Positions 1 to 64,000 of a stretch of DNA of 64,000 bases are shown piece after piece. Each line of letters starts with the position of its first letter. Positions within the stretch are counted from its first letter, which is position 1. Under the pieces are notes generated by a model. That model had not been told where the DNA came from, did not search any database, and saw nothing but the letters and a program-made list of their open reading frames with translations. The stretch is from a virus. The translations under genes were made by a program, and so were the position numbers. The stretch lies in IMG/VR virus record IMGVR_UViG_3300035157_000972. One strand, given 5' to 3'.

Positions 1-486
1 ACATGGAGAGATGTAAGAAAAAAGTTGCCTATCAATTTTGATACCTGTCAGTTTACCATTATAAATCCTAATGGTATTCATTTGAAACTGCATCATAGAT
101 TCATAAATGATTTCTCTGCTGCATGTTATATTATTACTAGACATCACGCTACAAAGGTGCTAAAATGTCATCAACGTGGTAACTTGTGGAAGATAGATCA
201 AAACATCAGACCACGAGCAGTATCAGAAGATTTGATTCTGGATAGTGGTAAAGGTTATGCTTTACCAATACTAAACTACAGACTCGATATGGGTTCTGCT
301 ATTCATGAGGAACATATAGATATATTCCACAAGGATAGTAAGCAAGGACTTGAAGAGTTCTGGAAACTAAATGGTCAAGACATTTTACTTGATCAGATTA
401 TGGAACTAGATGAATACGTTGGACGTGTTCCACCATCCGTTTACCAACAACAATTAGAAAATGACAGAGCAACAGCAACAACCTGA
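1..486 (+). CDS. Glycosyltransferase family 25-like protein, 5'-truncated by window edge
   Basis: Frame is open from base 1 (TWRDVRKKLP...); 'DFSAACYIITRHHATKVL...RPRAVSEDLI' resembles the C-terminal half of cyanophage GT25 proteins. Confidence 0.6.
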   Translation, partial: TWRDVRKKLPINFDTCQFTIINPNGIHLKLHHRFINDFSAACYIITRHHATKVLKCHQRGNLWKIDQNIRPRAVSEDLILDSGKGYALPILNYRLDMGSAIHEEHIDIFHKDSKQGLEEFWKLNGQDILLDQIMELDEYVGRVPPSVYQQQLENDRATATT

Positions 487-1204
487 AAAAATTGAACTTC
501 TAACTCAGGGTGTACAGCATGAGATGATTTTCAATGAAGGCATTGGAGTCATCAAAAATTATGCTAGTAAGGAATGGTGTAAATTATTGATTGATGCCTT
601 TGAGATGTATAATGCAACCAAGTTGTCTAAGAATGTTTTAGATGGGCATTATCAACTTGACACTACTAACGATGGAGAATCACAATTCAGACAAGGTTCA
701 ATGGGTAGAAAGGATGAGCAATTATTTCTTGAAGTAGCAGATGCAGGCATGGCATCAACCACTAATCAGATTGTGGGTGGTGCTTTTGAACATTATGTGA
801 AAGAATACAAGGGTGTGGTTGAGAGTTCTGATCCCGTATCATCATGGACTTGTAAAATACAGAAGACACAAAAAGGAGGAGGATATCATATATGGCATTG
901 TGAAGATGGTGGTTTTATGTATAGAGATAGAGTCCTTACATGGATGTTGTACTTGAATGATATACCAGTAGAAAATGGTGGTGCTACTGACTTTCTACAT
1001 CAGAAATGTTCTTTCCAACCTACTGTAGGAACTATGGTAATGTGGCCAGCAACTTATACTCATATGCATAGAGGATCTTTCTTAACAGGAGACACAGCAA
1101 AATATATTGCTACAGGTTGGTTCCTTAGAGAACCCGGAGCAGTTTCAGAAAGAATCATAAGTGAAAAACTTGGCACTCCTCAACAAGCAAACTTGAATCA
1201 GTGA
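461..1204 (+). CDS. 2OG-Fe(II) oxygenase
   Basis: HxE/D motif 'GGYHIWHCED', 'MLYLND', 'GGATDF', distal His 'HMHRG' and 'KYIATGW'. Confidence 0.85.
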   Translation: MTEQQQQPEKIELLTQGVQHEMIFNEGIGVIKNYASKEWCKLLIDAFEMYNATKLSKNVLDGHYQLDTTNDGESQFRQGSMGRKDEQLFLEVADAGMASTTNQIVGGAFEHYVKEYKGVVESSDPVSSWTCKIQKTQKGGGYHIWHCEDGGFMYRDRVLTWMLYLNDIPVENGGATDFLHQKCSFQPTVGTMVMWPATYTHMHRGSFLTGDTAKYIATGWFLREPGAVSERIISEKLGTPQQANLNQ

Positions 1205-1923
1205 TAATATATTCTTGCATAACCAATGGTTATGATAAGATACCTGATGATCATTTTTATGATCCGACTGTGAAATATGTGATGTATTATGATGGGGACA
1301 TAGAGCAGAAAGGTAGTTGGGAATTTATAAAATGTGATAGGCAAGAACCTGATTGGATAAAATCATACTACCCTAGATGTATGTCTCATACATTATTTGA
1401 CGAACCACATGTGTGGGTAGATGGGTGCTATACCATGCCACTTGATTTTGTAGAGAAGTCAAAACAATTTCTACAAAATGAACTGACATTGCAAGACCAC
1501 CCACAGCAGAGAACAATTGTACAAGAATTTTATAAACTATACAAAGTAGGATTTGCAACTGAAGATGAACTTGTAAAACTAGCAGAGGATATGTCACATG
1601 TTGGATTCAAACCATCACAACATAAACAGTCCTTGAATTGTTGTATATGGAGACAGAGCACAGAGAAGGTAAAAGAATGGAATGAATGCTATTGGAACTG
1701 GTATAGAAATCATTGTCAGAGGACTGATCAGATAGCAAGTTCTATTGCTGAACAACTTATTATGAAAGCAGATAGAGTTCCTATGCAAATTGATTGGAAT
1801 ATAAGCACCAGACAAAAATCATACAATGAGACATATACAATGTATGAAAATAAAGAAGATGATCAATTCATAGATAGGATAAGTGTAGCACTCAAAACCA
1901 AAAGATCTCTTATGGGTCTATGA
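1201..1923 (+). CDS. DUF616/TOD1-MUCI70-like glycosyltransferase, paralog 1
   Basis: 'IIYSCITNGYD', 'WVDG', 'HPQQRTIVQE', 'RTDQ' motifs; GTG start overlaps the upstream stop. Confidence 0.65.
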   Translation: MIIYSCITNGYDKIPDDHFYDPTVKYVMYYDGDIEQKGSWEFIKCDRQEPDWIKSYYPRCMSHTLFDEPHVWVDGCYTMPLDFVEKSKQFLQNELTLQDHPQQRTIVQEFYKLYKVGFATEDELVKLAEDMSHVGFKPSQHKQSLNCCIWRQSTEKVKEWNECYWNWYRNHCQRTDQIASSIAEQLIMKADRVPMQIDWNISTRQKSYNETYTMYENKEDDQFIDRISVALKTKRSLMGL

Positions 1924-2717
1924 TAATCTATACATGTATTACTAATGGTTATGATGTTCCAGAAGGACATTACATAGATCCTGATGTAAGATATGTCTTA
2001 CTACATGATGGTTCTGTTGAAGTTCCTGATGGTTGGGAAGGTATTGATGTAAGAAAAACTTTCAAATGTGATGAACCAGTAAGACAATCATACTATCCTA
2101 AGATAAATCCACATAAGTTTTTTGACAGGGGTGAGGATACTGTATGGTTAGATGGTGGATATCGTATAACAAAACATTATGTAGATTTTTGTAGAGAACA
2201 ATTCAGACAAGGAGATTTTACAAGGTTACAGCACCCAGAAAAATGCACCTTCTATGAAGAGATGATGGAAGGTTTTATGTGTCAGTATTTTACCTTTGAT
2301 GATGTGGTGGCAGCAACAAAAACATATGCTGAAGCAGGAATGAACTTCAGAAAGTATGGTAGTATTTTGTGCACATCAATATGGAGAACTATCAATGATA
2401 ATACAATAGCATTTGATGAGTTGTACTGGAAATACTATGATATGCATTGGATAATTACAGATCAAATGGCATTTGATCTATCAATGCAATTGAATAATTA
2501 TTATGCAAGAGTAATTACAGATCGTGATAGTGTAGGAATACTAGGTCATACAGGTAGAGTGAATAGAAGAGGTCCAAGACCTAAGTATGGCATAAAGGGA
2601 CAACAATCACGAGAGATGGAACTCATACAGGAGATGTATAAGTATACAAAATTACATCCTAAATTGTATTATAAGAGAGACTATACTTATTTGATGAAAA
2701 GGCACGGTTTGATATGA
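1920..2717 (+). CDS. DUF616-like glycosyltransferase, paralog 2
   Basis: 'IIYTCITNGYD', 'YPKINPHKFF', 'VWLDG', 'HPEKCTFYEE', 'TDQMAF'. Confidence 0.65.
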   Translation: MIIYTCITNGYDVPEGHYIDPDVRYVLLHDGSVEVPDGWEGIDVRKTFKCDEPVRQSYYPKINPHKFFDRGEDTVWLDGGYRITKHYVDFCREQFRQGDFTRLQHPEKCTFYEEMMEGFMCQYFTFDDVVAATKTYAEAGMNFRKYGSILCTSIWRTINDNTIAFDELYWKYYDMHWIITDQMAFDLSMQLNNYYARVITDRDSVGILGHTGRVNRRGPRPKYGIKGQQSREMELIQEMYKYTKLHPKLYYKRDYTYLMKRHGLI

Positions 2718-3463
2718 TAATCTATACATGTATCACAAATAATTATTGCAAGTTACCAGAGACCATGCCCGAAGGTCATGAGTACTATTGTTTTGGTGAA
2801 GCAGAAGCAGTGGGACCATGGAAGGTGCTGCCCGGAAAAGATTGCGGTGACCCAGTAAGATCGTCAAGGTATTATAAGATCAATTGTCCATTTGACTCAA
2901 GTGTATATGTTGATGCATCAAAACTACACTTGCTTAGAGAACCTTTTTTTACTATAAGTCATGAGATATTGAATACTTATGATGATAAGATGTTTTGTTT
3001 AGAGCACCCACATAGACACTCTTACCTGAATGAGATGATGGAATATTATTGTATGGGGTGGTGGAGTAAGAGTCAGATCATGCAATACACTGCTGAACTC
3101 AAAGACTATGGATTTGATTTCAAGAAATTCTTTTCACCCTTATGTACAATACTATGGAGAAAGAATCGTAAAGAGTTTAATGACATGTGGTGGAGATGGT
3201 ATGAACGAGGAGGTGTGAGAGATCAAATGTCATATGCTACAGCATTACAAGCATTGAAAATGAATTTTAGATACGATGATTCGATTAAGTTTTTGAATAA
3301 CTTTACGAATGCAGGGTATAAAGGTGAGTGGTGGGAGACCAGACAAGGTGATTACTCATATTTCAAAGCAAAAGAAAAAGATCATGTGTTAGATGTTCTC
3401 TGTAAGATGACAGGACTGTCTTCTTTTAGGTACAAACCATGCTGTAGAAGACGTACTAAATAA
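2714..3463 (+). CDS. DUF616-like glycosyltransferase, paralog 3
   Basis: 'IIYTCITNNY', 'SRYYKI', 'YVDAS', 'HPHRHSYLNE', 'RDQMSY'. Confidence 0.65.
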   Translation: MIIYTCITNNYCKLPETMPEGHEYYCFGEAEAVGPWKVLPGKDCGDPVRSSRYYKINCPFDSSVYVDASKLHLLREPFFTISHEILNTYDDKMFCLEHPHRHSYLNEMMEYYCMGWWSKSQIMQYTAELKDYGFDFKKFFSPLCTILWRKNRKEFNDMWWRWYERGGVRDQMSYATALQALKMNFRYDDSIKFLNNFTNAGYKGEWWETRQGDYSYFKAKEKDHVLDVLCKMTGLSSFRYKPCCRRRTK

Positions 3464-3481
3464 AAACAGCAAAGTTTTATT

Positions 3482-4774
3482 ATGTTATCAGTACATCAGC
3501 ATTGGGATCCACTAAAAGTATGTGCAGTGGGCAGATGTTATCCACCGGAATATTTCAACTACATTCAAAACTCAAAAGTCAGAGGAGTTTTTCATCGTAT
3601 AGCAGAGGAGACTGAAGAGGACTATCAGAAACTTATATCTGTACTTGATAAGTTTGATGTAAAGGTAATAAGAACTGACATAACAGATAATCCAGAGGAC
3701 TATCGTAGACCCGATGGTACTATGAAGTCACCACCCATGGTTCCCAGAGACTATACTGCGATGGTTGGGTCTAAGTTTTTCATGCCCGGAAAAAACTTTG
3801 GAAAAAATATTGATATTGAGTGGGAACTAAAGTGTATTATGAACACAAGTTCATTGCAGATGAATCATATATCAGACTTCCATAAAGATTTACTGAATTA
3901 TGTTTATGATCTTACATTTCCCGGAAGACCTGTGTCATCCTCTACTCAATCAATGCTTTTAAAAACTTTGAGAGGTATGAAAGCAGGTGCTGTAGGAAAT
4001 ATATTGCAGGCAATTGATACTGAGGATCTCAAGAATGTTATATTCCAAGGACATACAAATACAATAGGTAAGACCTCAAAATATGTACACGATGATAAGA
4101 CATATCCTTTCAAGACACTAGAGAAATTTGTTACTGATAGTGGTAATGAAATTGTATATGATCAATACATCAATTCTGCATCTATGATTAGACTAGGTAA
4201 GGATTTATATTTTGCTCTTGGTAATATAATCAGTAAAATGAATGAAAATAACTTCATGAAGAAATGGAAAAAATTATTTCCTGATTATAATATTCATCCA
4301 ATATCTACTCCCGGACATTCTGATGGTACTATGTGTCCTGTAAAACCCGGATTGATTCTTAGTCTTAGAGAACCTGAATTCTATAAAGAGTCATTCCCCG
4401 GTTGGGAAGTTGTGACTTTAGAAGGCGAGAGTTGGCATAAGGTCAAACCATTTATGGATAGAAAGGGGAAGACAAGGGGAAGATATTGGGTGCCAGATGC
4501 AGATGATTCTTTCTATGATTTTGTCAACGAGTGGATGGATGATTGGGTGACCTATGTTGAAGAGACAGTATTTGATCTAAACATGCTAGTTATTGATCAG
4601 CATAATGTTATTGTCAACGGTGAAAATAAAAAGGCATTCGATGCTTTTGAAAGACATGGAATTACACCACACATCGTAAAATTTAGACATAGATATTTTT
4701 GGGATGGAGGATTGCATTGTATAACATCTGATATTTCAAGGGAGGGAGAGCAAAAAAGTTTATTCAATGTATAG
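3482..4774 (+). CDS. Amidinotransferase (glycine/inosamine-phosphate amidinotransferase family)
   Basis: 'HQHWDPLKVCAVG', 'PMVPRD', 'GHSDG', catalytic Cys in 'FWDGGLHCITSD'; carries an internal insertion. Confidence 0.85.
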   Translation: MLSVHQHWDPLKVCAVGRCYPPEYFNYIQNSKVRGVFHRIAEETEEDYQKLISVLDKFDVKVIRTDITDNPEDYRRPDGTMKSPPMVPRDYTAMVGSKFFMPGKNFGKNIDIEWELKCIMNTSSLQMNHISDFHKDLLNYVYDLTFPGRPVSSSTQSMLLKTLRGMKAGAVGNILQAIDTEDLKNVIFQGHTNTIGKTSKYVHDDKTYPFKTLEKFVTDSGNEIVYDQYINSASMIRLGKDLYFALGNIISKMNENNFMKKWKKLFPDYNIHPISTPGHSDGTMCPVKPGLILSLREPEFYKESFPGWEVVTLEGESWHKVKPFMDRKGKTRGRYWVPDADDSFYDFVNEWMDDWVTYVEETVFDLNMLVIDQHNVIVNGENKKAFDAFERHGITPHIVKFRHRYFWDGGLHCITSDISREGEQKSLFNV

Positions 4775-5039
4775 AGTTGTATTTGTTGGGAGTATAAAGA
4801 ACTTGACTCCTGAGTATGAGAAATATAATGATGATCTATATGCTAGTGCTAAAACATTAGATGGATTCATTGGTATTGATACTGATGTGATTGAGGGTAC
4901 TGAGATAACAATAAGTAAATGGAAAACTAAGAAAGATGTAATGGGGTGGGCGATGGACCCACTGCACATGGAAGCAAAAAAACAAGTAAATAAGTGGTAT
5001 AATTGGTACAAATCTTATCATCTTGACTGTGACTCCTAA
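4767..5039 (+). CDS. Antibiotic biosynthesis monooxygenase (ABM)-domain protein
   Basis: 'DGFIGID...ITISKWKT...WAMDPLHMEAKKQ...WYNWY' is the ABM pattern. Confidence 0.75.
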   Translation: MYRVVFVGSIKNLTPEYEKYNDDLYASAKTLDGFIGIDTDVIEGTEITISKWKTKKDVMGWAMDPLHMEAKKQVNKWYNWYKSYHLDCDS

Positions 5040-5478
5040 AGAAAAAATCGAAGAGTGGGTACTCAATACACTGAGTGAACCTCATAATAAATTTGGTGAC
5101 TTACCTCCATGTCCTTATGCTAAGAAGGCATGGTTAGATGGTAATGTAGAGGTCAGGATGTGGAAAGACTTTGGAAGTTTTAGATATGATAAGTGGGAGA
5201 AAGAAGTTACCATCTATGTTATGGATCCATATACATCACCAGAGTTCTTGTCACAGATGACAAAAAACTTCAATAACTTATATCCTGACTACCTATTCTT
5301 AGAGGAGCATCCTGATCTAGTGGAAGACGTAGGTGGGTTTGTAGTAAATCAGGGAGAACTTATATTACTAATTGTACAGCAAAGAAAACCTTTAGAAGAA
5401 GCAAGAGATAAATTGCAGGGGACTTCTTACTATGAACACTGGACTCCTGAGATGAAGGAGAGAATCATTGAGCGTTAG
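5023..5478 (+). CDS. Hypothetical protein, DUF1415-like
   Basis: 'IEEWV...PPCPYAKKAW', 'EEHPD'; coupled to neighbours. Confidence 0.5.
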   Translation: MTVTPKEKIEEWVLNTLSEPHNKFGDLPPCPYAKKAWLDGNVEVRMWKDFGSFRYDKWEKEVTIYVMDPYTSPEFLSQMTKNFNNLYPDYLFLEEHPDLVEDVGGFVVNQGELILLIVQQRKPLEEARDKLQGTSYYEHWTPEMKERIIER

Positions 5479-7026: not shown

Positions 7027-7028
7027 TT

Positions 7029-7744: not shown

Positions 7745-7771
7745 AGACTTGTTACAAATGTAGTGATATCC

Positions 7772-10747: not shown

Positions 10748-11508
10748 TGCCTGCTAGAAAGAAGAAGACTTCCAATCAAGTTGGGGTAGGTATGACTGCC
10801 AAACAAATTAGGAGGAAGAAACCTTACAATGCTGACATGATGATTCCCATCGAGGCATTGACTGAGAATCAGAAAAAACTATTTGCATCACTCAATGAAG
10901 GTAAGAATGTATACACGTACGGAGTGGCAGGAACTGGTAAAACTTTTGTGGTTTTATATCATGCCCTCAAGGAAGTCCTCGATCCTATTACACCATATAA
11001 CAGGATTGTAATAGTAAGGTCTCTTGTATCTACAAGAGAGATAGGTTTCCTACCCGGTGACCATGATGATAAGTCAGCACTATACCAGATACCATACAAA
11101 AATATGGTCAAGTATATGTTTGAGTTACCTACAGACAGTGAGTTTGAAATGTTGTGGGGTAATCTCAAGACACAGGAGAGTGTCAAGTTTTGGTCAACCA
11201 GTTTTGTTAGAGGCACAACACTTGATGACTGCATCATGATAGTTGATGAGTGTCAGAACTTGAATTTTCATGAGTTAGATAGTATAATAACAAGAGTAGG
11301 AGAGAACTGTAAGATCCACTTCTGTGGTGACGCTGCACAAACCGACTTAGTAAAAACAAATGAGAAGAATGGTATCCTTGACTTCATGAAAATACTTGCA
11401 GCAATGCCTGAGTTTGATTCTATTGAATTTGGTATTGAAGATATAGTAAGATCAGGATTAGTCAAGAGTTATATTCTCAACAAACTGGCAATGAGTATTG
11501 ATGTTTAA
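10747..11508 (+). CDS. phoH: PhoH-family ATPase
   Basis: Walker A 'GVAGTGKT', 'IGFLPGD', 'RGTTL', 'DECQN', 'TRVGE'. Confidence 0.95.
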   Translation: MPARKKKTSNQVGVGMTAKQIRRKKPYNADMMIPIEALTENQKKLFASLNEGKNVYTYGVAGTGKTFVVLYHALKEVLDPITPYNRIVIVRSLVSTREIGFLPGDHDDKSALYQIPYKNMVKYMFELPTDSEFEMLWGNLKTQESVKFWSTSFVRGTTLDDCIMIVDECQNLNFHELDSIITRVGENCKIHFCGDAAQTDLVKTNEKNGILDFMKILAAMPEFDSIEFGIEDIVRSGLVKSYILNKLAMSIDV

Positions 11509-12166
11509 TCATGTAGAGTGTGATCTTCCTGCACTATCAAGGAAGACTATCGATGGTGTCAGATATTATTCGGTTGATGATAGACCGATGGTATCCATTA
11601 CTTCTGTCACATCATATTGGAACCGAGAGATCTTCAAGAAATGGAGAGCAAGAGTTGGTGAGGAGGAAGCAAACCGAATCACTAAGAAGGCAACCAATCG
11701 TGGCACGAAAACTCACGAGTTGATAGAGCACTTCCTACTCAATGAAGAGGTTGTATTAGACAACCCTAGTACTAAGATGTTATTCACTCAAGCAAAAAAA
11801 GAGTTGAAAAACATAAATAACATCTATGCGTTAGAGAAATCTCTATACAGCAGAGAATTAGGAGTAGCAGGGACGGTAGATTGCATCGCAGAATACAAGG
11901 GAGAACTTGCAATCATCGACTTCAAAACTGCAGAGAAACCTAAACCTGTTGATTGGATCGAGAACTATTTTGTACAGGCAGCAGCATATGCTTGTATGTT
12001 CTATGAGATTACAGACATCCCCGTCAAGAAACTTGTCATTCTCATGACATGCACCAACGGAGAGGTGAAAGTTTACGAAGAGTATGATAAAATGAAATAT
12101 ATGAGAAAACTTGTCCAGTACATCCAACTATTTGTCGAGGAAAAACTAAATGAAATCCAAAAGTGA
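11501..12166 (+). CDS. PD-(D/E)XK exonuclease (Cas4/RecB-like)
   Basis: 'SITSV', 'RGTKTH', 'AGTVDCIAEY...IIDFKT', 'QAAAYA'; usual position after phoH. Confidence 0.85.
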   Translation: MFNHVECDLPALSRKTIDGVRYYSVDDRPMVSITSVTSYWNREIFKKWRARVGEEEANRITKKATNRGTKTHELIEHFLLNEEVVLDNPSTKMLFTQAKKELKNINNIYALEKSLYSRELGVAGTVDCIAEYKGELAIIDFKTAEKPKPVDWIENYFVQAAAYACMFYEITDIPVKKLVILMTCTNGEVKVYEEYDKMKYMRKLVQYIQLFVEEKLNEIQK

Positions 12167-36647: not shown

Positions 36648-36684
36648 TATAAATAGGTTGAAGGAGATAGTGTCAGTATTTATA
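36648..36684. promoter_or_regulatory. Pair of opposed T4-type late promoters
   Basis: TATAAATA at 36648-36655 (+) and 36677-36684 (-). Confidence 0.75.
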
Positions 36685-36687
36685 GGT

Positions 36688-39600
36688 ATGCCGTTAAGCA
36701 GACTCGAAAATTTTCTCAAGAATGTCACAGGTAACGTAATTTACGTTAATCCTGAAGAACTTGATGCAACAGATGATATTAGTAATAGGGGAAGTAGTCG
36801 AGCAAGACCTTTCAAAACTATTCAACGTGCATTAATTGAGGCAGCGAGATTTTCATATCAAGTAGGTGGGAATAACGATAAGTTTGATAAAACCACAATT
36901 TTATTATCACCGGGTGTTCATTACGTTGATAACAGACCCGGATTGCAAATTAATACATCAGGTTCACTAACTGATGTAAATGGAACTGCAGCAACAATAG
37001 ATCAGTTGTCTATTGGTTCCAATTTTGATATTCAAGATCCTAATAATGTATTATACAAGTTTAATAGTGCCAGTGGTGGTGCTATTGTTCCTCGTGGTAC
37101 ATCAATAGTTGGTCAAGATCTAAGAAAGACAAAGATAAAACCAAAGTTCGTTCCACAACCTGACAACGGTAATATTGATACGTCAGCAATATTCAAAGTT
37201 ACAGGTGCATGTTTCTTCTATGGATTTAGTTTCTTTGATGCTGATCCAAATGATAGAATCTTCAGAGATTATACATCAAATGTATATGCTCCAAACTATT
37301 CTCATCACAAGTTAACTTGTTTTGAATACGCTGATGGCGTGAATACTATTGCAGGTAAGGGTAATACCGACCTTGACATGTATTATTATAAGTTGACACT
37401 TGCTTATGGTACTAACAGTGGTCGTGCTATACCAGTATATCCTACAAATACAGATTTCGAGAAGTCAGTTGATGAAACTCGTATTGTAGGTGCTATATCA
37501 CAGGTTGGATCTATTTCGATTAGTGACATATACTCTGGTTCAAATCCTACAGATGGAGTGGCAACACCTATCGTTACTGTAGTAACAGCAACTAATCATA
37601 GTTTTGAAGTAGGAACACCAGTTCTAATCCAAGGTGTTGATGATACAAATTATGATGGAAGTTATATTGTATCTCAGGTTCTTAGTGATACTTCTTTCAC
37701 ATATTCTGTACCTTCCACTCCTTCAAGCACAGCAACTCCAAACTTGTCTGGGCTAAATCCGATAGTTAAAGTAGAGAGTGATACTGTATCATCAGCATCA
37801 CCATATATTTTCAACTGTTCAATAAGATCGGTATACGGTATTTGTGGACTAAACGCTGATGGTAGTAAAGCAACTGGATTCAAGTCCATGGTTGTTGCAC
37901 AGTTTACTGGTATCGCACTAAACAAAGATGATAATGCTTATGTCAAGTACAACACTACAACAGGTGTGTGGCAAGATCAAGCAGCACTTGGATCATCAGT
38001 CAGTTTGCACACAGATAGTTTAGCAAAACATAAACCATCTTACCAAAACTATCATATAAGAGTAAGTAATAACGGTATAATTCAGGCAGTATCAGTATTC
38101 GCTATTGGATATGCACAGCATTTCTTTGCTACTTCTGGTGGTGATATGTCAATCACCAACTCTAACTCTAACTTTGGTGCTAAGTCACTAGAAGCAGATA
38201 AGTTTAGATTTGAATCATTCCTCAAAGATGATAAAGGATTCATAAGAGAGATAAATCCACCACAGCATAACTTTGCAAAAGAAACTACAGTAGGATTTTT
38301 ACCATTAGATGTAGAGGCAACTGTAGGTGTATCAACAGATATCAAGGTTTACCTCAACGATTTCAAAAATAAAGATAATAAACCAAATGTAATACTCAAT
38401 GGGTTCCACGTTGGTGCTAAGATAGGAGATCAACTCAACGTAAGTATTGGTAACACAGTATTTGGAGCAGACATCGTTATGCCTGTTCCTCAGACTGACC
38501 CTGATGAAAGAGTATCTGGTCAGAAAGAAATATTCGTTGGTAGAGTATCAGGTATCAATAGTATAACTGGAAATACTTTTACATTACAGTCTGATCATAA
38601 GTTTATAAACGGTGAGACAGTCAGAGTTTATTCTGAAAACGGATCACTACCTGATGGATTAGATTATAACAGAGTTTATAATGTTATAACTACATCCCTC
38701 AATGCTGATCAAATTCAGTTAGCATCAACCCTGAACAATGCCGTTGCTGGTAATGAGATCACAGGCATCAATAATTCAGGTGGACTTCTTCGTATAGTAT
38801 CAAAAGTATCTGATAAAGAAGCAGGAGATGTGGGACATCCCGTGCAGCACGATGCTTCAGGTTGGCATGTAAATGTTGGAGTGGGTAATACTTTATCTGC
38901 TGCTATAACAGGAAGTCAGAGTTCTATTACACCAAAGACCAGAACTTCATTCATCAAGAGGACACTTGATAGGCGTGAAGAGTCAGAGAAGAATTATGGA
39001 TTGAAGTATATCATACCTCAAGATTCTAATCTAGCAGCAGCACCGATAGCAGGTTTTAGTATCGCTGAGACATCTTCAGTTCCAGATGATACAAACTATC
39101 AGAATGACAATAATGTTCTTACATCAGCATCAAATCTAAGACAACCAAACAATATTATCAATGCTTCATGGGCAAGCAATGTAGGTATTATCACTGCAGA
39201 GCAACCTCATGGATTGAAAGTAGGTCATATCGTACAGGTTTATAGACTTAGAAGTTCTACAAATGCATCAGGAACTGACAATAGTGGTTTCAACGGTATA
39301 TTTGAAGTATCTGCAGTTCCAAGTGATACCACATTCAGAGTTGGATTGAACACAGATCCCGGTGGAATTTCTACAATTACAATTGGTATCCCTTATACAT
39401 TCCATGATAGAAGTATTGTTGGTTCAGGTAGAACATTCAGTCCTTACTTCGTAAAACGTGACTTCAATACAAGTTATCAGATACAGGGTACAAATGAGAT
39501 ACAGGAATATAAGCAGGGAGTACAGGATGGTGAGTATGATCTAACATTACGTGGATATATTTCACAACCAGAGGTTTCTCCATTCTCCACAACTACAAAC

Positions 39601-42039
39601 TACTTTGGACAGGACATTACTGATATCGTACCTTCAGAGGATGTAGATAACAGAAACTATGATCCAAAGGCAGCAGTCAGTTATGCTGTAAGAGACGAGA
39701 TTGGTAAGGTAGAAACTAACGATCCTGAAAGAAGTATTACTAAGGAAGGTCTAAATTCATTCCTAAGAGAGACAGGTGCTGTAAAGACTATTGATACTAC
39801 ATCAACCAGTGGTGGAACACTTACTATAAACACCCTAGTGGATCATGGATTCAACGGTATTGTAGGAATACAAAGTATTACAGGTGGTGCTCAATATGGT
39901 ACTAACAGTGGTAATGCTGAGTTCTATTTCAACGTAAGACTTGAAGGTGGTACAGGTGAAGGAGCAACTGCTGATGTCACTGTATCTGCTGCAAGCACAA
40001 TAAGTGGTATAACACTAAATCATCCCGGTTCTGGTTATAGTGTAAACGATACTCTAACAGTAAGAGGAGTTCCTTTCCACACCCCCGGAACAGATTGTAC
40101 AGTTGGGGTTTCAGGAATCGACAATAAAGTCGGTGATGTAGTTGAAATAGTAGGTGTTTCAAGCGAATCATATGATGGACTATACAGAATCAAGGAAGTC
40201 ACAGACAAAAATAGTTTCACAGTCAACGGTAGTGCCGATGGTTCAGGAACCGGAGGACATGTTTACCACGTTGGTGTTTCTACTGGAGTCACTAACATCA
40301 CTCATGATGCTATAAGTGGTATTGCTACAGTACAACTTAGTGGTGACATCGGACTCAGAAGAGGTGATCAAATCGTTATTGCTGGTGCCACTGACTTTGC
40401 ATCAATCTATAATGGAACGTTCTTTATATCAGATAGAGTAGGTTATGGTACTTCTTTAGCAGTCAATATTGGTATAACTTCAAATGCTCCTGCTTTCACA
40501 GGCGTAGCGACAGCCCATGGGACAGGTATTTCAGTGAGAGGACATGGTAGAGGTATACCGTTATACGGTGGTCATACTACCAAACTCAATAATGATATTA
40601 CTTCTACATCCACAGGTGTAACTCTTGCTAACAAGGGTAACTTGAAAAGAGGAGACTTCTTGATTATAGAGGATGAGATCGTGATGGTTTCAAACTCTGC
40701 AGTTACAACTGTAATCAGAGGTGTACTTGGCACAAATGCAGTAGCACATACTAAGGAAGTATCAGTCAGAAAGATCAAACCAATTCCTACTGAGAACAGA
40801 AGATACTCTGTATTGAGAGCATCAGGACATACATTTGAGTATGTCGGATTCGGACCCGGAAACTACTCAACCTCAATGCCACAGGTACAGGACAGAGTAA
40901 GATCTGAGGAAGAGGAGTTGATTGCTCAGTCATTACAAACTAGAGGTGGATTTGTAGTCTACACTGGTATGAATGATCAGGGAGACTTCTACATTGGTAA
41001 TGTCAAGATTGACTCAGCGACAAATTCACTCAAGTTTGTTGGTGGTATCGGTGGAAGAGGTGGTGGTGCTGTGGGAGACACAGTTCTACCTGCTAACGCT
41101 ACATTTGATGATTTAGTTGCAGATCAATCATTCCAGTCTAATGGAGAAACAGAAGTAATTGATTTACTTCTCAAAGGTAATCGTTCAGGTGATATAGGAA
41201 ATAGTGTTTATGTTGGTATACAGGCAGGTAATAGCACTCCAACAAGTAATGTTGATAACGTTCTAATCAAGACATCACCTGATGCAGGTGAATATGTTGG
41301 TTGGGTCAAGACTGGTAGTAGTTGGAAACGATTCGGACCAATTTCAAAATCAGGAGAAGTGAATGCATATGCCTTTGATACTCTTGAAGTTGCAGGTCTA
41401 TCAACATTCTCAGGTGGACAAAAAGTAACTGGAAACGTTGATGTTACAGGATCTGTAACTGCAAGTGCCACGATCACAGCAGAGCAACTTACATCTACAG
41501 ATGATGCAAACATCGCTGACGATCTAACAGTTGGAGGCACAGCAACAGCAGATACATTTGTTGGTAATGGTGTCATACCGGTTGGTGGTATTATCATGTG
41601 GTCTGGAACTGATGCTGCAGTACCTGCTAATTGGGTTCTATGTGATGGTTCAGCAGCAGCACAAGCAGCAGGGGCACCAAACCTAGTTGACAGATTTATT
41701 GTTGGTCGTGGTTCTGCATATGCAGCAGATTCCACAGGTGGTAGTGCAGATGCTACATTGGTAACTCACAGTCACACAACAAATTCCACATCTAAAACTC
41801 TAACTGGTGCTGTTACAAAAATATCAGAAGGTTTCAATGCAGGTGGAACTGCAACTGGTGTATTCACAAAAACCAATGATGGAAACAATAACATCACAGA
41901 GAGTGCATCTACAAGTCCTGTATCTGGATTTACCTTTGATGGTACTCACACACATGGAACTGATTCACAAGGTTCTGCAGCGACTAACGCTAACTTACCT
42001 CCATATTATGCAATCGCTTATATCATGCGAGTTAGTTGA
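36688..42039 (+). CDS. Large baseplate/tail-fibre protein with C-terminal collar domain
   Basis: 'MPLSRLENFLKN..RPFKTIQRA', beta-helix-like core, collar 'PVGGIIMWSG..WVLCDG..PNLVDRF..NLPPYYA'. Confidence 0.82.
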   Translation: MPLSRLENFLKNVTGNVIYVNPEELDATDDISNRGSSRARPFKTIQRALIEAARFSYQVGGNNDKFDKTTILLSPGVHYVDNRPGLQINTSGSLTDVNGTAATIDQLSIGSNFDIQDPNNVLYKFNSASGGAIVPRGTSIVGQDLRKTKIKPKFVPQPDNGNIDTSAIFKVTGACFFYGFSFFDADPNDRIFRDYTSNVYAPNYSHHKLTCFEYADGVNTIAGKGNTDLDMYYYKLTLAYGTNSGRAIPVYPTNTDFEKSVDETRIVGAISQVGSISISDIYSGSNPTDGVATPIVTVVTATNHSFEVGTPVLIQGVDDTNYDGSYIVSQVLSDTSFTYSVPSTPSSTATPNLSGLNPIVKVESDTVSSASPYIFNCSIRSVYGICGLNADGSKATGFKSMVVAQFTGIALNKDDNAYVKYNTTTGVWQDQAALGSSVSLHTDSLAKHKPSYQNYHIRVSNNGIIQAVSVFAIGYAQHFFATSGGDMSITNSNSNFGAKSLEADKFRFESFLKDDKGFIREINPPQHNFAKETTVGFLPLDVEATVGVSTDIKVYLNDFKNKDNKPNVILNGFHVGAKIGDQLNVSIGNTVFGADIVMPVPQTDPDERVSGQKEIFVGRVSGINSITGNTFTLQSDHKFINGETVRVYSENGSLPDGLDYNRVYNVITTSLNADQIQLASTLNNAVAGNEITGINNSGGLLRIVSKVSDKEAGDVGHPVQHDASGWHVNVGVGNTLSAAITGSQSSITPKTRTSFIKRTLDRREESEKNYGLKYIIPQDSNLAAAPIAGFSIAETSSVPDDTNYQNDNNVLTSASNLRQPNNIINASWASNVGIITAEQPHGLKVGHIVQVYRLRSSTNASGTDNSGFNGIFEVSAVPSDTTFRVGLNTDPGGISTITIGIPYTFHDRSIVGSGRTFSPYFVKRDFNTSYQIQGTNEIQEYKQGVQDGEYDLTLRGYISQPEVSPFSTTTNYFGQDITDIVPSEDVDNRNYDPKAAVSYAVRDEIGKVETNDPERSITKEGLNSFLRETGAVKTIDTTSTSGGTLTINTLVDHGFNGIVGIQSITGGAQYGTNSGNAEFYFNVRLEGGTGEGATADVTVSAASTISGITLNHPGSGYSVNDTLTVRGVPFHTPGTDCTVGVSGIDNKVGDVVEIVGVSSESYDGLYRIKEVTDKNSFTVNGSADGSGTGGHVYHVGVSTGVTNITHDAISGIATVQLSGDIGLRRGDQIVIAGATDFASIYNGTFFISDRVGYGTSLAVNIGITSNAPAFTGVATAHGTGISVRGHGRGIPLYGGHTTKLNNDITSTSTGVTLANKGNLKRGDFLIIEDEIVMVSNSAVTTVIRGVLGTNAVAHTKEVSVRKIKPIPTENRRYSVLRASGHTFEYVGFGPGNYSTSMPQVQDRVRSEEEELIAQSLQTRGGFVVYTGMNDQGDFYIGNVKIDSATNSLKFVGGIGGRGGGAVGDTVLPANATFDDLVADQSFQSNGETEVIDLLLKGNRSGDIGNSVYVGIQAGNSTPTSNVDNVLIKTSPDAGEYVGWVKTGSSWKRFGPISKSGEVNAYAFDTLEVAGLSTFSGGQKVTGNVDVTGSVTASATITAEQLTSTDDANIADDLTVGGTATADTFVGNGVIPVGGIIMWSGTDAAVPANWVLCDGSAAAQAAGAPNLVDRFIVGRGSAYAADSTGGSADATLVTHSHTTNSTSKTLTGAVTKISEGFNAGGTATGVFTKTNDGNNNITESASTSPVSGFTFDGTHTHGTDSQGSAATNANLPPYYAIAYIMRVS

Positions 42040-57409: not shown

Positions 57410-57442
57410 TAGTACATAAGCAATCAATCAACAATCAAGATT

Positions 57443-58573: not shown

Positions 58574-58580
58574 CATTCTA

Positions 58581-58609
58581 TTGACAGGGTAAACCAAACC
58601 TGTCATAAT
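58581..58609 (+). promoter_or_regulatory. Sigma70 promoter with internal inverted repeat
   Basis: TTGACA-17 bp-CATAAT; TGACAGG/CCTGTCA palindrome. Confidence 0.7.
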
Positions 58610-58711
58610 GAGTATGTCAGTCAGAGGTTTTGATTGATGACTGACTGACTGACAAACCATTTGTGTCATGTCGTATGACCTAAAACTAGGCACTTGAAAA
58701 CTTACTACATT

Positions 58712-58933
58712 ATGATTATGCAAATTACAGGTTCTTCCGCTATCGCAAACGTAAACTTCAAAGATGCAGGTTTAGTTGGAATCACATTCACATCACAAGA
58801 TACTGAGTATGATTTTCTTGCGAAGGATTCAAACCTTGTTCGTAATGGACTAAGCAATGCAATCTCAAAAGGAGATAGCGTTGGCAAGTTGATCGCTTCA
58901 TACAGAAGAGAAGGTCAACTAACAGAAGTGTAA
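58712..58933 (+). CDS. Small KTSC-like protein
   Basis: 'SSAIANVNF..GITFT..EYDF..SVGKLI'. Confidence 0.5.
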   Translation: MIMQITGSSAIANVNFKDAGLVGITFTSQDTEYDFLAKDSNLVRNGLSNAISKGDSVGKLIASYRREGQLTEV

Positions 58934-58989
58934 TCTGAAACTACACAAAGACAACTGAATATTTTGACACTAGCATAATCTCGCAAAGC

Positions 58990-59015
58990 AAAGCACTCGA
59001 AAGGGTGCTTTTCTT
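58990..59015 (+). terminator. Intrinsic terminator
   Basis: AAAGCACTC-GAAA-GGGTGCTTT followed by a T-rich tail. Confidence 0.75.
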
Positions 59016-59073
59016 ATGCCAATTTATATACTGGTACAAATTGGTTGTTATAGCATAAGACTTATACTATAAT
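59016..59073 (+). promoter_or_regulatory. Early-type promoter driving the restriction-modification pair
   Basis: ATGCCAAT-N6-ACTGGTAC, then TTGTTA-17 bp-TATAAT. Confidence 0.65.
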
Positions 59074-59095
59074 GAGTATATCAATTACAGACACA

Positions 59096-59623
59096 ATGAT
59101 TACAGCAAAAGACATTCTACAATTCAAAACACACAAAGTTTCTCTACAAGAAAGTAAGAGTTGTATCTACAATGGTAGTCCATTTCAAGTCTATAAACAA
59201 ATGAGTAGCAAGAAGAAAGGGGCAAGGTTCGAGGGTATTGTACAAGAGTATTGCACAAACTTAGGATACAAAGTTACAAAACCTGATAACTCAGATCATG
59301 ACAGGAAGATCAACAACATCAAGGTTGAGATCAAGGGTTCAATGATATGGTCAGGCAAAGATGAGCATTTCCGTTGGCAACAATTACGACCGCATCAAGA
59401 TTATGATGTTGTTATATTCCTTGCAATATTCCCACAACAGATAGAGTTCTATGGTTGTACAAAGCAAGATGTCAAAGACAATCTTGAAATACAGGACGAG
59501 AAGGGCAACTGGATACACAACCAACATGGAGGACTCAAGGTCAACTCAGGCACATTCTTTTTGGATAGTGACGGTCTAACCATACCAACATGGTTCAAAT
59601 CAATCGAAGAGGTATTACAATGA
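59096..59623 (+). CDS. Type II restriction endonuclease-like protein (PD-(D/E)XK)
   Basis: 'KGARFE', 'DHDRKINNIKVEIKGS', 'WQQLR..QDYD', 'QHGG'; start moved to 59096 because TATAAT overlaps the ATG at 59072. Confidence 0.75.
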   Translation: MITAKDILQFKTHKVSLQESKSCIYNGSPFQVYKQMSSKKKGARFEGIVQEYCTNLGYKVTKPDNSDHDRKINNIKVEIKGSMIWSGKDEHFRWQQLRPHQDYDVVIFLAIFPQQIEFYGCTKQDVKDNLEIQDEKGNWIHNQHGGLKVNSGTFFLDSDGLTIPTWFKSIEEVLQ

Positions 59624-60408
59624 AACTCAACACAATTACAAACTCAGACTGTCTAAAGTATCTAAAGAAACTACCAGACAATTCAGTTGACCTCGTACTA
59701 ACTGACCCCCCATACTTCATAGGATTTGACGGTGGTAAGGGTTGGGATAAGCAATGGAAGAGTGACAGGGAGTACATTCAATGGTGCATAGAGTGGACTA
59801 AGGAGTGTGTTAGGGTACTCAAAGATGAACGTATGCTCGTTGTATGGGGTACTCTAAAGACTGAAGCGTTCTTATTGTATAAACTAGCATTGAACCGTAT
59901 GGAGGGCATTACACCCCAGAATGAGATCATTTGGTCATACAACTGGGGTGGTAGGTCTAAGGATAACTTTGCTCGTAAACATGAGTATGCGTGGTGCTAT
60001 TCAACAGGTGATAAATTTTTGTTCAATGGTGATGACGTAAGAATTGATCGTAAGATGAATACTAACATAAGAACTGGTTTACAGCATACAAAGGGAACTA
60101 TACCAACATGTGTATGGGAGAAGAACAACCACACAACCAGTAAGGACTATGTTGGTTGGCATGCTACAACTAAGAACATTGATATACTGTCAAGAATAAT
60201 CAAGGCATATACAAATGTCAATGATGTCGTTCTGGACTGTTTCATGGGTTCTGGTTCAACTGCTATCGCTAGTATCAGGACTGGACGTAACTTTGTAGGG
60301 TGTGAAAGAGATAAAGAATACTATACAAAGGCAAAGAAACGTATTTGTGACAGTCAAAAAAGTGACACCAAAAACGTGTCTAAGGCAAGTTTAGCGTCTA
60401 TACTATAG
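59620..60408 (+). CDS. Beta-class N6-adenine/N4-cytosine DNA methyltransferase
   Basis: Motif IV 'TDPPY' precedes motif I 'LDCFMGSGST'; ATGA-coupled to the nuclease. Confidence 0.92.
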   Translation: MKLNTITNSDCLKYLKKLPDNSVDLVLTDPPYFIGFDGGKGWDKQWKSDREYIQWCIEWTKECVRVLKDERMLVVWGTLKTEAFLLYKLALNRMEGITPQNEIIWSYNWGGRSKDNFARKHEYAWCYSTGDKFLFNGDDVRIDRKMNTNIRTGLQHTKGTIPTCVWEKNNHTTSKDYVGWHATTKNIDILSRIIKAYTNVNDVVLDCFMGSGSTAIASIRTGRNFVGCERDKEYYTKAKKRICDSQKSDTKNVSKASLASIL

Positions 60409-60429
60409 ACATATACAGGAGTTACACCT

Positions 60430-60570
60430 ATGAGACAATTCACAGTTTCAGCACTTCTTGAAGGATACAGGATAGAGGAGACTGTAACAGCAGTTTCTAT
60501 TCATCATGCTATCAAGATCATGAAGGCAAAGTATGGCAATTCAGCAAGAAACATTTACGTTTTGAACTAA
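60430..60570 (+). CDS. Small hypothetical protein (46 aa, not in ORF track)
   Basis: AGGAG upstream; MRQFTVSALLEGYRIEETVTAVS... Confidence 0.55.
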   Translation: MRQFTVSALLEGYRIEETVTAVSIHHAIKIMKAKYGNSARNIYVLN

Positions 60571-60740
60571 TGAATGAACAAAGACTAAACGAAGAACTCG
60601 ACCTCTTAGAGGAGCATGAAAGAGTCAAAGAAAAGCGTTATCAGGAGTTTCAGCAATGGTTGAACAGTTGCCCTCTCGTGATAACTGACTACAACGATTT
60701 CACAACCGAGTTTCAAATCACATTCTCATTATCTGACTAA
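60570..60740 (+). CDS. Small hypothetical protein (56 aa, not in ORF track)
   Basis: TAATG-coupled at both ends. Confidence 0.55.
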   Translation: MNEQRLNEELDLLEEHERVKEKRYQEFQQWLNSCPLVITDYNDFTTEFQITFSLSD

Positions 60741-60982
60741 TGGAGTACATCACATACAAAAAGCAAGATTTCATTTTTGCATCAAGTCACATTTTATGTG
60801 AGACATTACCCCCTGACTTTGATTCATGGAGTGAAGAAAGACTAGACGATTTCCTAAGTGACAATGCTTATGAACCGTACGAGTATCACACACCCACACA
60901 AATATTTCAAGAGATAGAGTCACTTGCTCACTCAGTTAGAGATTATATCAAAGCAGATCACGAAGACTCTTTGATGATGTGA
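60740..60982 (+). CDS. Small acidic hypothetical protein
   Basis: Coupled ORF in early module. Confidence 0.6.
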   Translation: MEYITYKKQDFIFASSHILCETLPPDFDSWSEERLDDFLSDNAYEPYEYHTPTQIFQEIESLAHSVRDYIKADHEDSLMM

Positions 60983-61057
60983 CAATGAATTACTGGCACA
61001 TCTACGCTTGCTTTCTACTATGCAAGTATTATTATTATAGTATAACAAATCAATCAC

Positions 61058-61279
61058 ATGGAAAGAACTAAAAAACAACTCATGAAAGACCTACAATTCT
61101 GTAAGAATGTTTTAGGTCTATCCCCAGAAGACACCGATCAAATGATCTCAGTATGTGACAAGATGCAAATTGGTGCTGAATATTTTTCAGAAGAATTTGT
61201 ATTTGAAGCAGACTGTATCGAAACAGTATTGAGAGTACATGACCCAGAATATCTACAAATCAAATGGAAATTAGCATGA
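61058..61279 (+). CDS. Small hypothetical protein
   Basis: First ORF after promoter module 60979. Confidence 0.6.
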   Translation: MERTKKQLMKDLQFCKNVLGLSPEDTDQMISVCDKMQIGAEYFSEEFVFEADCIETVLRVHDPEYLQIKWKLA

Positions 61280-61485
61280 ATGACAAAGGGCAATTCAATT
61301 TGCCACTCACACATACTCAGTTATGTGATGTCATATACTATCTTGACTGGAAAATTTTTGAAGTCAATGAAGCAGGTTGCGATCTAGAATTTCCAGAGAT
61401 CGAAGACACACTTCAACAACTAAGAGATTACAAACATCAAATCTCTCAAAAATATAATCTATTCGAGGTTGAACATGGAACTTAG
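61276..61485 (+). CDS. Small hypothetical protein
   Basis: ATGA coupling. Confidence 0.55.
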   Translation: MNDKGQFNLPLTHTQLCDVIYYLDWKIFEVNEAGCDLEFPEIEDTLQQLRDYKHQISQKYNLFEVEHGT

Positions 61486-61804
61486 ACAAGATAGTAAAGA
61501 CACATACACCTTGAAACTCACTCGCAGGGAACTAGGTTTACTTCATTACCAGTCAAGCATTTGGTATCATAGAGTGGACTCAGACCTTGAGCAGGGTGCT
61601 ATCGGATACGATCATCACTTATGGGATTGGTTCGGCAAAGATGCTGTTGTAGGTCTATACAGAGCAGTTAGAACCCTTATTGATTCTAACTTTGACAATG
61701 ACAAACAGTTACAGCGTAAAGATGCTTTTACCAAACCATTTTGTTATGAACCAAAGAGTGAAAACCACTACACTAAGTGGGATATTGGTCAATTCAAAGA
61801 CTGA
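61475..61804 (+). CDS. Hypothetical protein
   Basis: GAGG upstream; overlapping ORF. Confidence 0.55.
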   Translation: MELRQDSKDTYTLKLTRRELGLLHYQSSIWYHRVDSDLEQGAIGYDHHLWDWFGKDAVVGLYRAVRTLIDSNFDNDKQLQRKDAFTKPFCYEPKSENHYTKWDIGQFKD

Positions 61805-61866
61805 CACATGATCGGTTGCTATTTTATTGTAACCGATTATTATAATACTATAGCAATCAATCAATC

Positions 61867-62124
61867 ATGGCAATGACACCTCGACAATTCATGGAAGAAG
61901 TTTACGAGATAGCGTATGGCGATCAAGCATACTATCGTGGTTTCTTTCCAGAAGAAGTGCTAGAAACACTTAGAGAATTTTCAGACAATGCTCTCAAGGT
62001 CGAAGAGTTGAGTCTAGAACCAGAACAGTATGAAGACATGGATAGGCAACTTGAAGACGCTTATCGTAGAGGATACAAAGACGGTCGTAAATTTGCATTA
62101 CAACAACAGGAGACTAACTCATGA
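61867..62124 (+). CDS. Small acidic hypothetical protein
   Basis: First ORF after promoter module 61786; 'FMEEVYEIAYGD'. Confidence 0.6.
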   Translation: MAMTPRQFMEEVYEIAYGDQAYYRGFFPEEVLETLREFSDNALKVEELSLEPEQYEDMDRQLEDAYRRGYKDGRKFALQQQETNS

Positions 62125-63894
62125 ATCGTTCAGAACTAGAAAAACTAATTACTGACTTTGTTTTAGAGCATAATCTTGATGCTCAGTTTGTACAGCAAAC
62201 AGAAGGACTAACTTATGTTCGATTTGTAGTCGAGGAGGACTCATGAAACAGTTTATCATTTATGCCACTAAAGAATACGAGTACACAAAAACCGTATTTG
62301 CAAAAGACATTACTGACGCTCATCTACAGGCATTTTACAGAACTGAAGACCCAGAGGACGATTGGACTTGTATTACTGACCCTGACTATGATGATGACAA
62401 CCCTTACAACATTACACTAATTGAGGAGTCATGACTAAAAACGAATTTACAGACTTACTTGCAAAGTGGACTGACAAGTATATCATGTCAATGTCAGTTG
62501 ACCAACTCAGACATCACGTTGCTGAAGACGTATTTACAACAATGCTCAATCTTAGGAAATATGGAGACGAGCGTGAAGTATTTGACGAAATGATTGACTG
62601 GGGTGGAGAAGATTTATTCAATGAGGTATCATCATGACTAGAGATTATCAACCAGAAGGAGTCAAATATACATTTCCTGATGATGACCCATATCAGGAGA
62701 GCAATGAAATCTATTACAACATGGTAGATTTTCTAGATGATTCAGAAGTACATCAAATCTGGGAAATTGTCGGCAAGGCACTTGACAGAAATAATATTGT
62801 CACAACAGACAATGAAAGTCTATCAGTTCGGGTGTATGATGAACTTAGTGAAGAGGACTAACTCATGAAAACAGTTACTTACACATTTGATGAACTACAC
62901 GCTTTTAGTGAGCATGTCACATGGTGTATCATGGAACAAGATCAACCAGTAGATGACAACCTACAATCTTTTATAGACAAAACTCTTTATTCAAATGACT
63001 AATCACAAACAAGTAAACTTCACAACTGTCATGGACTATCGTCAAACATTTACAGTTGACCTAGATTTTGAAGCACTCAAAAAAGAGTACATTGAAAAGC
63101 ATGACTTTGATGAAGAAGAAGTGCAAGGTATGTGGGAGAGTGATGACGAATTGTACAACCTCGCATGGGAAATGGTCATGGAAGACCCAGACAAGTATCG
63201 TGACCAAGAATTTGGTCATGGAGACTATGACAATGAAGTCGTGTATCATGACTGTATAATCTGATGAAAGTTTACACGTTACTATTGACAGAAGGCGAGA
63301 TCAATTCATTGAAAGATCGTCTAGAGTCAGACAACTACGTCAATTATGACAATGATCTCAAATCAGTAGTTGAAAAGATCGGTTACTTCTTTGAACCACA
63401 AAAAGATGGAACTATCGACAATTCCCCATACAACGAAATTCCTGACAGGTACTAAACATGGCAATTCCAGACAAACTAACCAAAGCACAATTTGACGCTC
63501 TCAAAGAGTATTATGTTGATCGTATTGTTGATAATATGTCAACAAAAGACCTCGTTCGTTACGTTTATGATGATATGTCAGAGTGGGTTGACTCACTCGG
63601 ATATACTGAAGCAATGAATGAATTTGAGGAATATTGGCAAGAATATTTTACGGATACAATAGAGGAAGTTTTGGAGTGTGTCAAGGAATGATTTGTTACG
63701 AAGTTTACAACATTGATTTTGACTTTGATGACGGTATCGAAGAACCGATTACAAGAGAAGAAAAGAAATCAATCATAGCAGACAATCTTGGCAAGTGGTA
63801 TGCACTTGATGATGATGACCTGATTGACGATATTACCTCGACAAGTGGGTGGTGCATCAAACATATTGACTACGAAATTGCTGAAATTGTATAA
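62121..63894 (+). other. Array of nine translationally coupled or abutting small acidic ORFs (62121-62246, 62243-62434, 62431-62637, 62634-62861, 62865-63002, 62995-63264, 63264-63455, 63458-63691, 63688-63894)
   Basis: ATGA/TGATG overlaps, GAGG(A) ribosome-binding sites, Asp/Glu-rich products typical of early host-takeover genes; no families recognised. Confidence 0.6.
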
Positions 63895-63902
63895 AATGTA
63901 CA

Positions 63903-63931
63903 TTGACTTATAATAGCATAGCGTCTATTAT
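63903..63931 (+). promoter_or_regulatory. Sigma70-type promoter before an ORF starting at 63953 that runs off the window
   Basis: TTGACT-17 bp-TATTAT. Confidence 0.55.
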
Positions 63932-64000
63932 AATAGTAATTCAATCAATCACATGGATTCATTCACTAGACCAGAAAGAGATCTAAACAAAGAACTCTCA

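Follow-up and report, generated by a model that had tools for sequence, protein, structure and literature searches.

The 64,000-nt stretch of viral DNA analysed here (the window, to which all positions refer) comes from IMG/VR record IMGVR_UViG_3300035157_000972 and is a piece of the genome of an uncultured T4-like cyanomyovirus of marine origin. It contains not a single CCWGG site (CCAGG or CCTGG) on either strand, whether in any of the three codon phases of its coding DNA or in its 3.7 kb of non-coding DNA. We consider escape from host restriction to be the explanation for this avoidance, with a probability of about 0.6, and the most likely source of the barrier is the marine picocyanobacteria, probably Prochlorococcus.

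CCWGG is absent in every reading phase

Against the zero observed, 59.8 ± 7.4 CCWGG sites were expected in the window from dinucleotide shuffles, 55 from a maximal-order Markov model and 46.3 ± 4.5 from within-gene synonymous codon shuffles (z = −10). The motif thus lies far below expectation under composition-, dinucleotide- and codon-keeping nulls alike, and the exact count bears out the original prediction, made from the sequence alone, that CCWGG appeared to be absent. When the counts are split by codon phase (0/1/2), 0/0/0 sites are found against 27.6/5.5/14.4 expected: an NCC codon never stands before TGG or AGG, and CTG or CAG never stands between NNC and GNN. The loss has proceeded by synonymous change in every reading phase and is not a single codon-pair effect.

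At Pro-Gly dipeptides, of which the 77 genes called from open reading frames (ORFs; 94% of the window covered) contain 37, proline is coded by CCC (23) or CCG (14) and never by CCA or CCT. Elsewhere, before residues other than glycine, CCA and CCT account for 575 of 675 prolines (85%), and the probability of meeting 37 Pro-Gly pairs without either codon is about 2 × 10−31. Both halves of this pattern, some 35–40 Pro-Gly pairs with only CCC or CCG and a preference for CCA/CCT at other prolines, had been read from the sequence before and agree with the full count. The original prediction had also named CCWGG, and not CCNGG or CCGG, as the target, and the retained sites bear this out: CCSGG is enriched, with 40 sites against 12–15 expected, and CCGG occurs 78 times against 48–54 expected, that is, at 1.4–1.7 times expectation. 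This apparent gain in CCSGG is a by-product of the Pro-Gly codon choice, which accounts for 37 of the 40 sites.

Such codon pairs can be followed in individual genes. The 430-residue ORF at 3482–4774 (plus strand), which was called an amidinotransferase in the original prediction and has no Pfam match, holds a cluster of CCC-GGN pairs at 3785, 3920, 4310, 4346 and 4397. The fibre gene at 36658–42039 (plus strand; 1,793 residues) has CCS-GGN at 36910, 36937, 39358, 40024, 40084 and 40855; a short stretch of it shows 88–91% DNA identity to fibre genes of Prochlorococcus MED4 phages.

Pro-Gly sets CCWGG against CCGG

Every Pro-Gly pair reads CCNGG. With W at the middle base it forms a CCWGG site and with S it includes CCGG, so that a genome that encodes Pro-Gly can be free of CCGG or of CCWGG, but not of both. 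Most other cyanomyoviruses are found on the opposite side of this divide. In the whole genomes of P-HM1, S-SSM7, S-BM3 and S-ShM2, CCGG occurs zero times or once against 66–135 expected, and these four genomes together with 80-kb samples of ten others show CCGG to be near-universally absent in the group. Bellamy is an exception (147 observed, 216 expected), and several Synechococcus phages are strongly but incompletely depleted.

The CCGG-free phages (P-HM1, S-SSM7, S-BM3, S-ShM2, P-SSM4 and others) belong to the same virus group as the window, and have an equally total purge and RGCY depletion in common with it. They differ in that the opposite motif has been purged, so that they use CCW at Pro-Gly where the window's clade has CCS. 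In this clade the conflict between the two motifs is settled for the loss of CCWGG, and CCGG avoidance has been dropped altogether. We read the clade as favouring CCWGG loss because other phages also avoid those CCWGG sites that Pro-Gly does not force on them, while CCGG in the window stands at 1.4–1.7 times its expected number.

The purge is limited to one clade

The window has a GC content of 0.378 and encodes PhoH, ThyX, CobS-like and carbamoyltransferase genes; no RNA family was found in it by Rfam at the gathering threshold. No GenBank phage exceeds 42% identity to its gp48-like protein, the best matches there being the "Marine virus AG-345" records and Synechococcus and Prochlorococcus myoviruses. 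In an exact-protein look-up, one protein of the window was found identical, letter for letter, in Tara Oceans scaffolds; the look-up gave only Tara and other contigs, none longer than 6 kb.

Three further IMG/VR contigs (G001, G002 and G003) share with the window 47–88% gp48 identity and thousands of 20-mers. The four together contain no CCWGG in 285 kb, where about 240 sites were expected. The 147-kb metagenome contig FUFK010050862.1 also belongs to this clade.

An environmental survey with two proteins of the virus, a gp32-like protein and an oxygenase, fetched 160 loci, of which 98 were long enough to classify. Among these, 54 were CCGG-free, 34 had both motifs, ten were CCWGG-free (three from IMG/VR and seven from marine metagenomes) and none lacked both. 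The CCWGG-free loci are the nearest relatives of the query, with at least 91% identity in the gp32-like protein and 68–74% in the oxygenase, whereas a sister contig (L156), whose gp32-like protein is 89% identical, is already CCGG-free with normal CCWGG. The choice at conserved Pro-Gly positions is reciprocal: CCS in 67 of 67 cases inside the clade and CCW in 43 of 43 in seven other cyanomyoviruses. These data show that the CCWGG purge is limited to one clade, and that avoidance differs between related phages by lineage or host. They also speak against the possibility, raised with the original prediction, that CCS-GG usage is common to all relatives regardless of host, other cyanomyoviruses using CCW-GG at the very same positions.

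Other motifs vary within the clade. ACTAGT is missing from the window, G002 and G003 (9–15 expected) and is present in G001 (10 against 20 expected); GAATTC, GTAC and TCGA were found mildly depleted in the same comparison. G001 also carries, at 76947–77456 (L020:16947-17456, minus strand), an extra Dam-family adenine methylase (PF05869) that was not seen in the window.

CCWGG depletion is linked to the isolation host

Some CCGG-free phages, in which CCWGG is forced at Pro-Gly, have nevertheless lost most of their remaining CCWGG sites. P-HM1 has 124 sites at Pro-Gly and only 5 elsewhere (50 expected elsewhere), S-SSM7 has 188 and 12 (100 expected), and AG-345-D19 has 36 and 1 (16 expected). 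S-BM3, S-ShM2 and Bellamy show little or no depletion of this kind.

For ten further phage genomes, 80 kb each was sampled for phase-resolved counts. Observed and expected CCWGG outside Pro-Gly in the Prochlorococcus isolates were 1/19 for MED4-213, 1/16 for P-SSM4, 1/11 for P-TIM68, 6/24 for P-SSM3 and 9/19 for P-RSM4; in five Synechococcus isolates they were 69/65, 44/45, 21/28, 34/43 and 45/47. With an observed/expected ratio below 0.5 taken as depletion, six of six Prochlorococcus isolates but only one of nine Synechococcus isolates, of which the other eight stand near expectation, are depleted (Fisher p = 0.0014, uncorrected for relatedness; several of the phages compared are congeneric, and the test therefore overstates their independence).

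Two other motif patterns were seen alongside. GCGC is absent from the window (13–20 expected), as is GCSGC (13 expected); of the Prochlorococcus phages, P-HM1, P-SSM4, MED4-213 and P-SSM3 likewise have no or almost no GCGC, but Synechococcus phages have it. The RGCY set (AGCT, GGCC and AGCC/GGCT) is nearly gone from the window, with 15 sites against 339 expected under the synonymous shuffle, and is depleted in G001–G003 as well; most cyanomyoviruses checked are depleted in it to a varying degree, several Synechococcus phages only mildly.

Candidate CCWGG enzymes in Cyanobiaceae

We have searched species-representative genomes of the picocyanobacterial family Cyanobiaceae for enzymes that may act on CCWGG. 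E. coli Dcm/Vsr, EcoRII, MvaI, BstNI and PspGI all share this motif, and two of these types have counterparts in the family, namely a Dcm homologue accompanied by Vsr and a nuclease of the MvaI family paired with an SPPY methylase. For EcoRII none was found, the EcoRII-C family being seen in 0 of 401 Cyanobiaceae genomes in a family search run without a positive control.

C5 methylases are present in 37 of 301 Cyanobiaceae genomes. One class of them is Dcm-like, being 50% identical to E. coli Dcm over residues 87–463 and retaining about 40% identity through the variable region, at which the alignment of the other C5 classes ends. It always adjoins a Vsr homologue, and occurs in 10 of 285 species genomes (3.5%) of one Prochlorococcus-like genus, whose assemblies of 1.0–1.7 Mb and locus GC of 0.31–0.34 fit high-light Prochlorococcus. 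The methylase frame (L141:8693-9811 in one of them) is open over 373 residues in all ten genomes, with no canonical start codon before motif I.

Unlike the classical CCWGG systems, the Dcm-like gene, whose predicted target, judged from similarity, is CCWGG, has as its neighbours cassettes of several genes and not a Type II nuclease of the classical kind. In four genomes these are homologues of MzaB (HATPase_c_3), MzaC (Z1), MzaD (a DUF4420 PD-(D/E)XK protein) and MzaE (AIPR), standing in this order next to the methylase gene and running in the same direction as it in three of the four. In other genomes the methylase gene lies beside a three-gene cassette that includes a PDC-M33A-like protein. 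The islands were seen beside a SIMPL-family gene (L141:8234-17232 in genome G195, L142, L144 and L145; L146:3498-8695). Vsr and the Dcm-like methylase are conserved across the islands (74–100% identity, 88–96% for the methylase), whereas the Mza cassettes are only 28–46% identical to each other. The mzaABCDE set, for which PADLOC has models, has been called a validated defence system, with mzaA described as a sigma factor (PMC9523054). In the Prochlorococcus islands the Vsr and Dcm-like module stands in the place of mzaA, and methylation may control the system.

The second candidate is a complete MvaI-like restriction–modification pair, composed of an SPPY N4-cytosine methylase and an MvaI/BcnI-family nuclease, which lies beside a lycopene cyclase gene at L266:362-2256 in genome G132 (locus GC 0.48) and was found in 1 of 301 Cyanobiaceae genomes. 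The nuclease (L266:1471-2256) matches R.MvaI over its full length (E = 8 × 10−16) and R.BcnI at the N-terminus only. R.MvaI cuts CCWGG. Enzymes of probable CCWGG type therefore exist in the family searched, but they are rare.

Host barrier or phage nuclease

If host restriction is the cause, the phage would meet a CCWGG-specific endonuclease during infection, and any unmethylated CCWGG on the entering DNA would be a liability. Synonymous variants without the site would have been fixed by purifying selection until none remained. At Pro-Gly the removal of CCWGG creates a CCSGG that contains CCGG, a cost which the lineage would have accepted in giving up CCGG avoidance. Under this explanation the host systems described above would restrict at CCWGG, and the hosts of this phage would carry them. 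We favour a host barrier because of the link with Prochlorococcus isolates, because of the host loci, and because no candidate nuclease was found in the phage.

Several observations weigh against host restriction. The candidate host systems are rare (3.5% for the Dcm-like gene, 1 of 301 for the MvaI-like pair, none of 401 for EcoRII-C); the target of the Dcm-like enzyme is assigned by similarity only, and its open frame lacks a canonical start before motif I. Dcm and Vsr could also form an orphan pair of the E. coli kind, or could protect the host from a nuclease of the phage. A host link of the phage was not found, an 8-kb probe from the window having returned only phage DNA of about 74% identity in the 285 Prochlorococcus-like genomes. 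The analysis also yields no explanation for why the clade tolerates CCGG when most relatives lack it. Finally, the loss of TTAA in some cyanomyoviruses goes with a phage-encoded nuclease, as described below, which sets a local precedent for self-avoidance.

A possible but rather unlikely source of the pressure is a CCWGG-specific endonuclease encoded by the phage itself, which could serve, for example, to shred host DNA for nucleotides. The phage would be immune by being free of the site, and Dcm-like methylation in the host would be a counter-measure. The completeness of the purge (0 of about 240) fits a pressure that acts in every infection, and restriction–modification is said to be uncommon in these hosts. 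Moreover, although strain WH8109 was the isolation host of both S-SSM7 and Bellamy, the two are entirely unlike in their CCGG and CCWGG avoidance.

The TTAA precedent comes from the window's own small PD-(D/E)XK-like nuclease P0002 (59072–59623, plus strand), which matches the PADLOC Type II restriction-enzyme model REase_II with E = 8 × 10−15 and has homologues only in some Synechococcus myoviruses. In genomes that carry this gene, TTAA occurs 0 times against 590 expected in S-ShM2 (180 kb), 76 against 552 in S-BM3, 64 against 273 in the window and 298 against 671 in G001. It is kept in fifteen genomes or records without a P0002 homologue, ten such phages having 0.63–0.94 of expectation. The homologues lie at L016:2953-3450 in S-ShM2 and L015:3109-3450 in S-BM3. 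In S-ShM2, TTAA is gone entirely and no homologue of the window's methylase P0001 is present. The TTAA data as a whole show that a phage-borne nuclease can accompany a self-purge in this virus group.

For CCWGG, in contrast, no such nuclease gene could be found. Pfam (about 30 proteins) and PADLOC (13 proteins) gave no restriction-enzyme match in the window other than P0002, which tracks TTAA; the scan with PF09019 (EcoRII-C) and PF15515 (MvaI/BcnI) was not run on the window. These two families had no match in G001–G003, S-BM3 and S-ShM2, where the incompleteness of the clade genomes and the want of a positive control make the absence weak evidence. Searches of the clade contigs found no C5 methylase and no psbA either. 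Among those proteins of the window and G001 that are clade-specific or unknown, Pfam and PADLOC found no nuclease, and the genes that CCWGG-avoiding phages share and non-avoiders lack are gp2-like or small ORFs, with no recognisable nuclease among them. A parallel comparison for CCGG yielded, as the only gene common to all CCGG-free genomes and absent from both Bellamy and the window's clade, a 95-residue ORF without a Pfam match. The link with the Prochlorococcus isolation host is also explained more simply by a host factor.

The window does encode a Cas4-like PD-(D/E)XK nuclease at 11498–12166 (plus strand). It was set aside as a CCWGG cutter: homologues are widespread, occurring in most but not all of the cyanomyoviruses compared, the CCGG-free ones included, and the CCGG-free sister L156 has one that is 85% identical.

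A more general version, which we regard as unlikely, is an arms race in reverse, in which cyanomyovirus nucleases shred host DNA and the phages stay immune by clearing their own DNA of the corresponding sites, which would be CCWGG in this clade, CCGG in most relatives and TTAA in carriers of the P0002 family. If it were true, the Dcm-Vsr islands of Prochlorococcus would be host shields, and the Pro-Gly constraint would divide the phages into two kinds of genome that are incompatible with each other.

The nuclease and methylase pair at 59–60 kb

P0002 overlaps, from the upstream side, the gene of a beta-class N6-adenine DNA methyltransferase, P0001 (59590–60408, plus strand; PF01555, E = 1 × 10−48). 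The original prediction had asked whether this pair recognises CCWGG, and as the sole restriction-enzyme-like and methylase pair in the window it was the obvious candidate. The answer appears to be no, and a CCWGG specificity of the pair is very improbable. By its DPPY motif and its closest solved relatives, M.MboIIA, M.RsrI and CcrM, P0001 is an adenine methylase and not a C5 or SPPY-type cytosine methylase, and hence no protector of CCWGG. Among the phages, homologues of both proteins (39% and 70%) are found in S-BM3 and one of the nuclease in S-ShM2, and both phages keep CCWGG at normal levels (264 of 310 and 275 of 321 expected) while TTAA is depleted. Across phages, what goes with the presence of the pair is the loss of TTAA rather than that of CCWGG.

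The pair of the window (59072–60408) was also compared with that of G001 (64854–66184). The nuclease is 93% and the methylase 97% identical, although gp48 is only 47% identical between the two, which suggests a recent exchange of the cassette.

Selection on the site rather than mutational decay

How the sites were lost can be seen by comparison with the CCGG-free relatives. We have aligned 44 of their CCWGG sites to window codons with the amino acids unchanged, each site being counted once per relative, so that the counts are non-independent. The window differs by a central W to S change at 43 of the 44 orthologous sites (A>C 13, A>G 3, T>C 14 and T>G 13), and C>T or G>A changes number zero. 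Since the changes fall on the central base and none is of the C>T or G>A type, deamination of 5-methylcytosine as the driver of the loss is ruled out, and the spectrum points to selection on the CCWGG site itself. The view that CCWGG was selected against as an enzyme target rather than lost by deamination, already taken in the original prediction, is thereby upheld.

A mutational decay, in which Dcm-type methylation followed by 5-methylcytosine deamination would have eroded the sites with no selection on them as targets, is accordingly very hard to maintain. Dcm-like methylases do occur in some Prochlorococcus genomes, but deamination at Pro-Gly would be non-synonymous, no site is left even in lineages with as little as about 47% gp48 identity, and the clade contigs have no C5 methylase. 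A codon-pair or translational bias, an effect of base composition and an artefact of assembly can practically be dismissed: Pro-Gly is somewhat under-used in the window genes (37 against 54 expected from amino-acid composition), but all three codon phases and both strands are purged relative to codon-preserving nulls, sister phages of the same composition make the opposite codon choice, and independent assemblies from IMG/VR, Tara and further metagenomes show the pattern again.

Discussion

Restriction-site avoidance is a known phenomenon in phages, and CCWGG is a classical target. EcoRII sites are scarce in the coliphages T7 and T3, and GGCC is scarce in some Bacillus phages. As in other phages that avoid short palindromes, a short palindromic Type II target has here been lost synonymously, in dependence on lineage and host. 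The present case differs from the known ones in three ways. The purge is absolute over about 285 kb and diverged relatives; it is found in marine cyanomyoviruses, in whose hosts restriction–modification is reported to be rare; and it is coupled to the loss of CCGG avoidance, Pro-Gly making the two exclusive. We have found no description of such site avoidance for cyanophages in the literature searched. New are thus the total purge in marine cyanomyoviruses, the Pro-Gly trade-off with CCGG and the sharp switch between sister lineages, as well as the association of the pattern with phages of Prochlorococcus and with Dcm-Vsr defence islands.

Phage resistance in marine picocyanobacteria is usually attributed to surface changes rather than to restriction. 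The phage genomes tell otherwise: the total loss of CCGG or CCWGG, the loss of GCGC and the strong depletion of RGCY rank with the strongest footprints that restriction can leave. It follows that a barrier of site-specific nuclease type has long shaped these phage genomes. Being CCGG-free or CCWGG-free is a simple sequence marker that sorts cyanomyoviruses into escape types, and this marker could predict host range from metagenomic contigs. On the host side, the work names concrete loci, the Vsr-Dcm-Mza islands and the MvaI-like pair in Cyanobiaceae.

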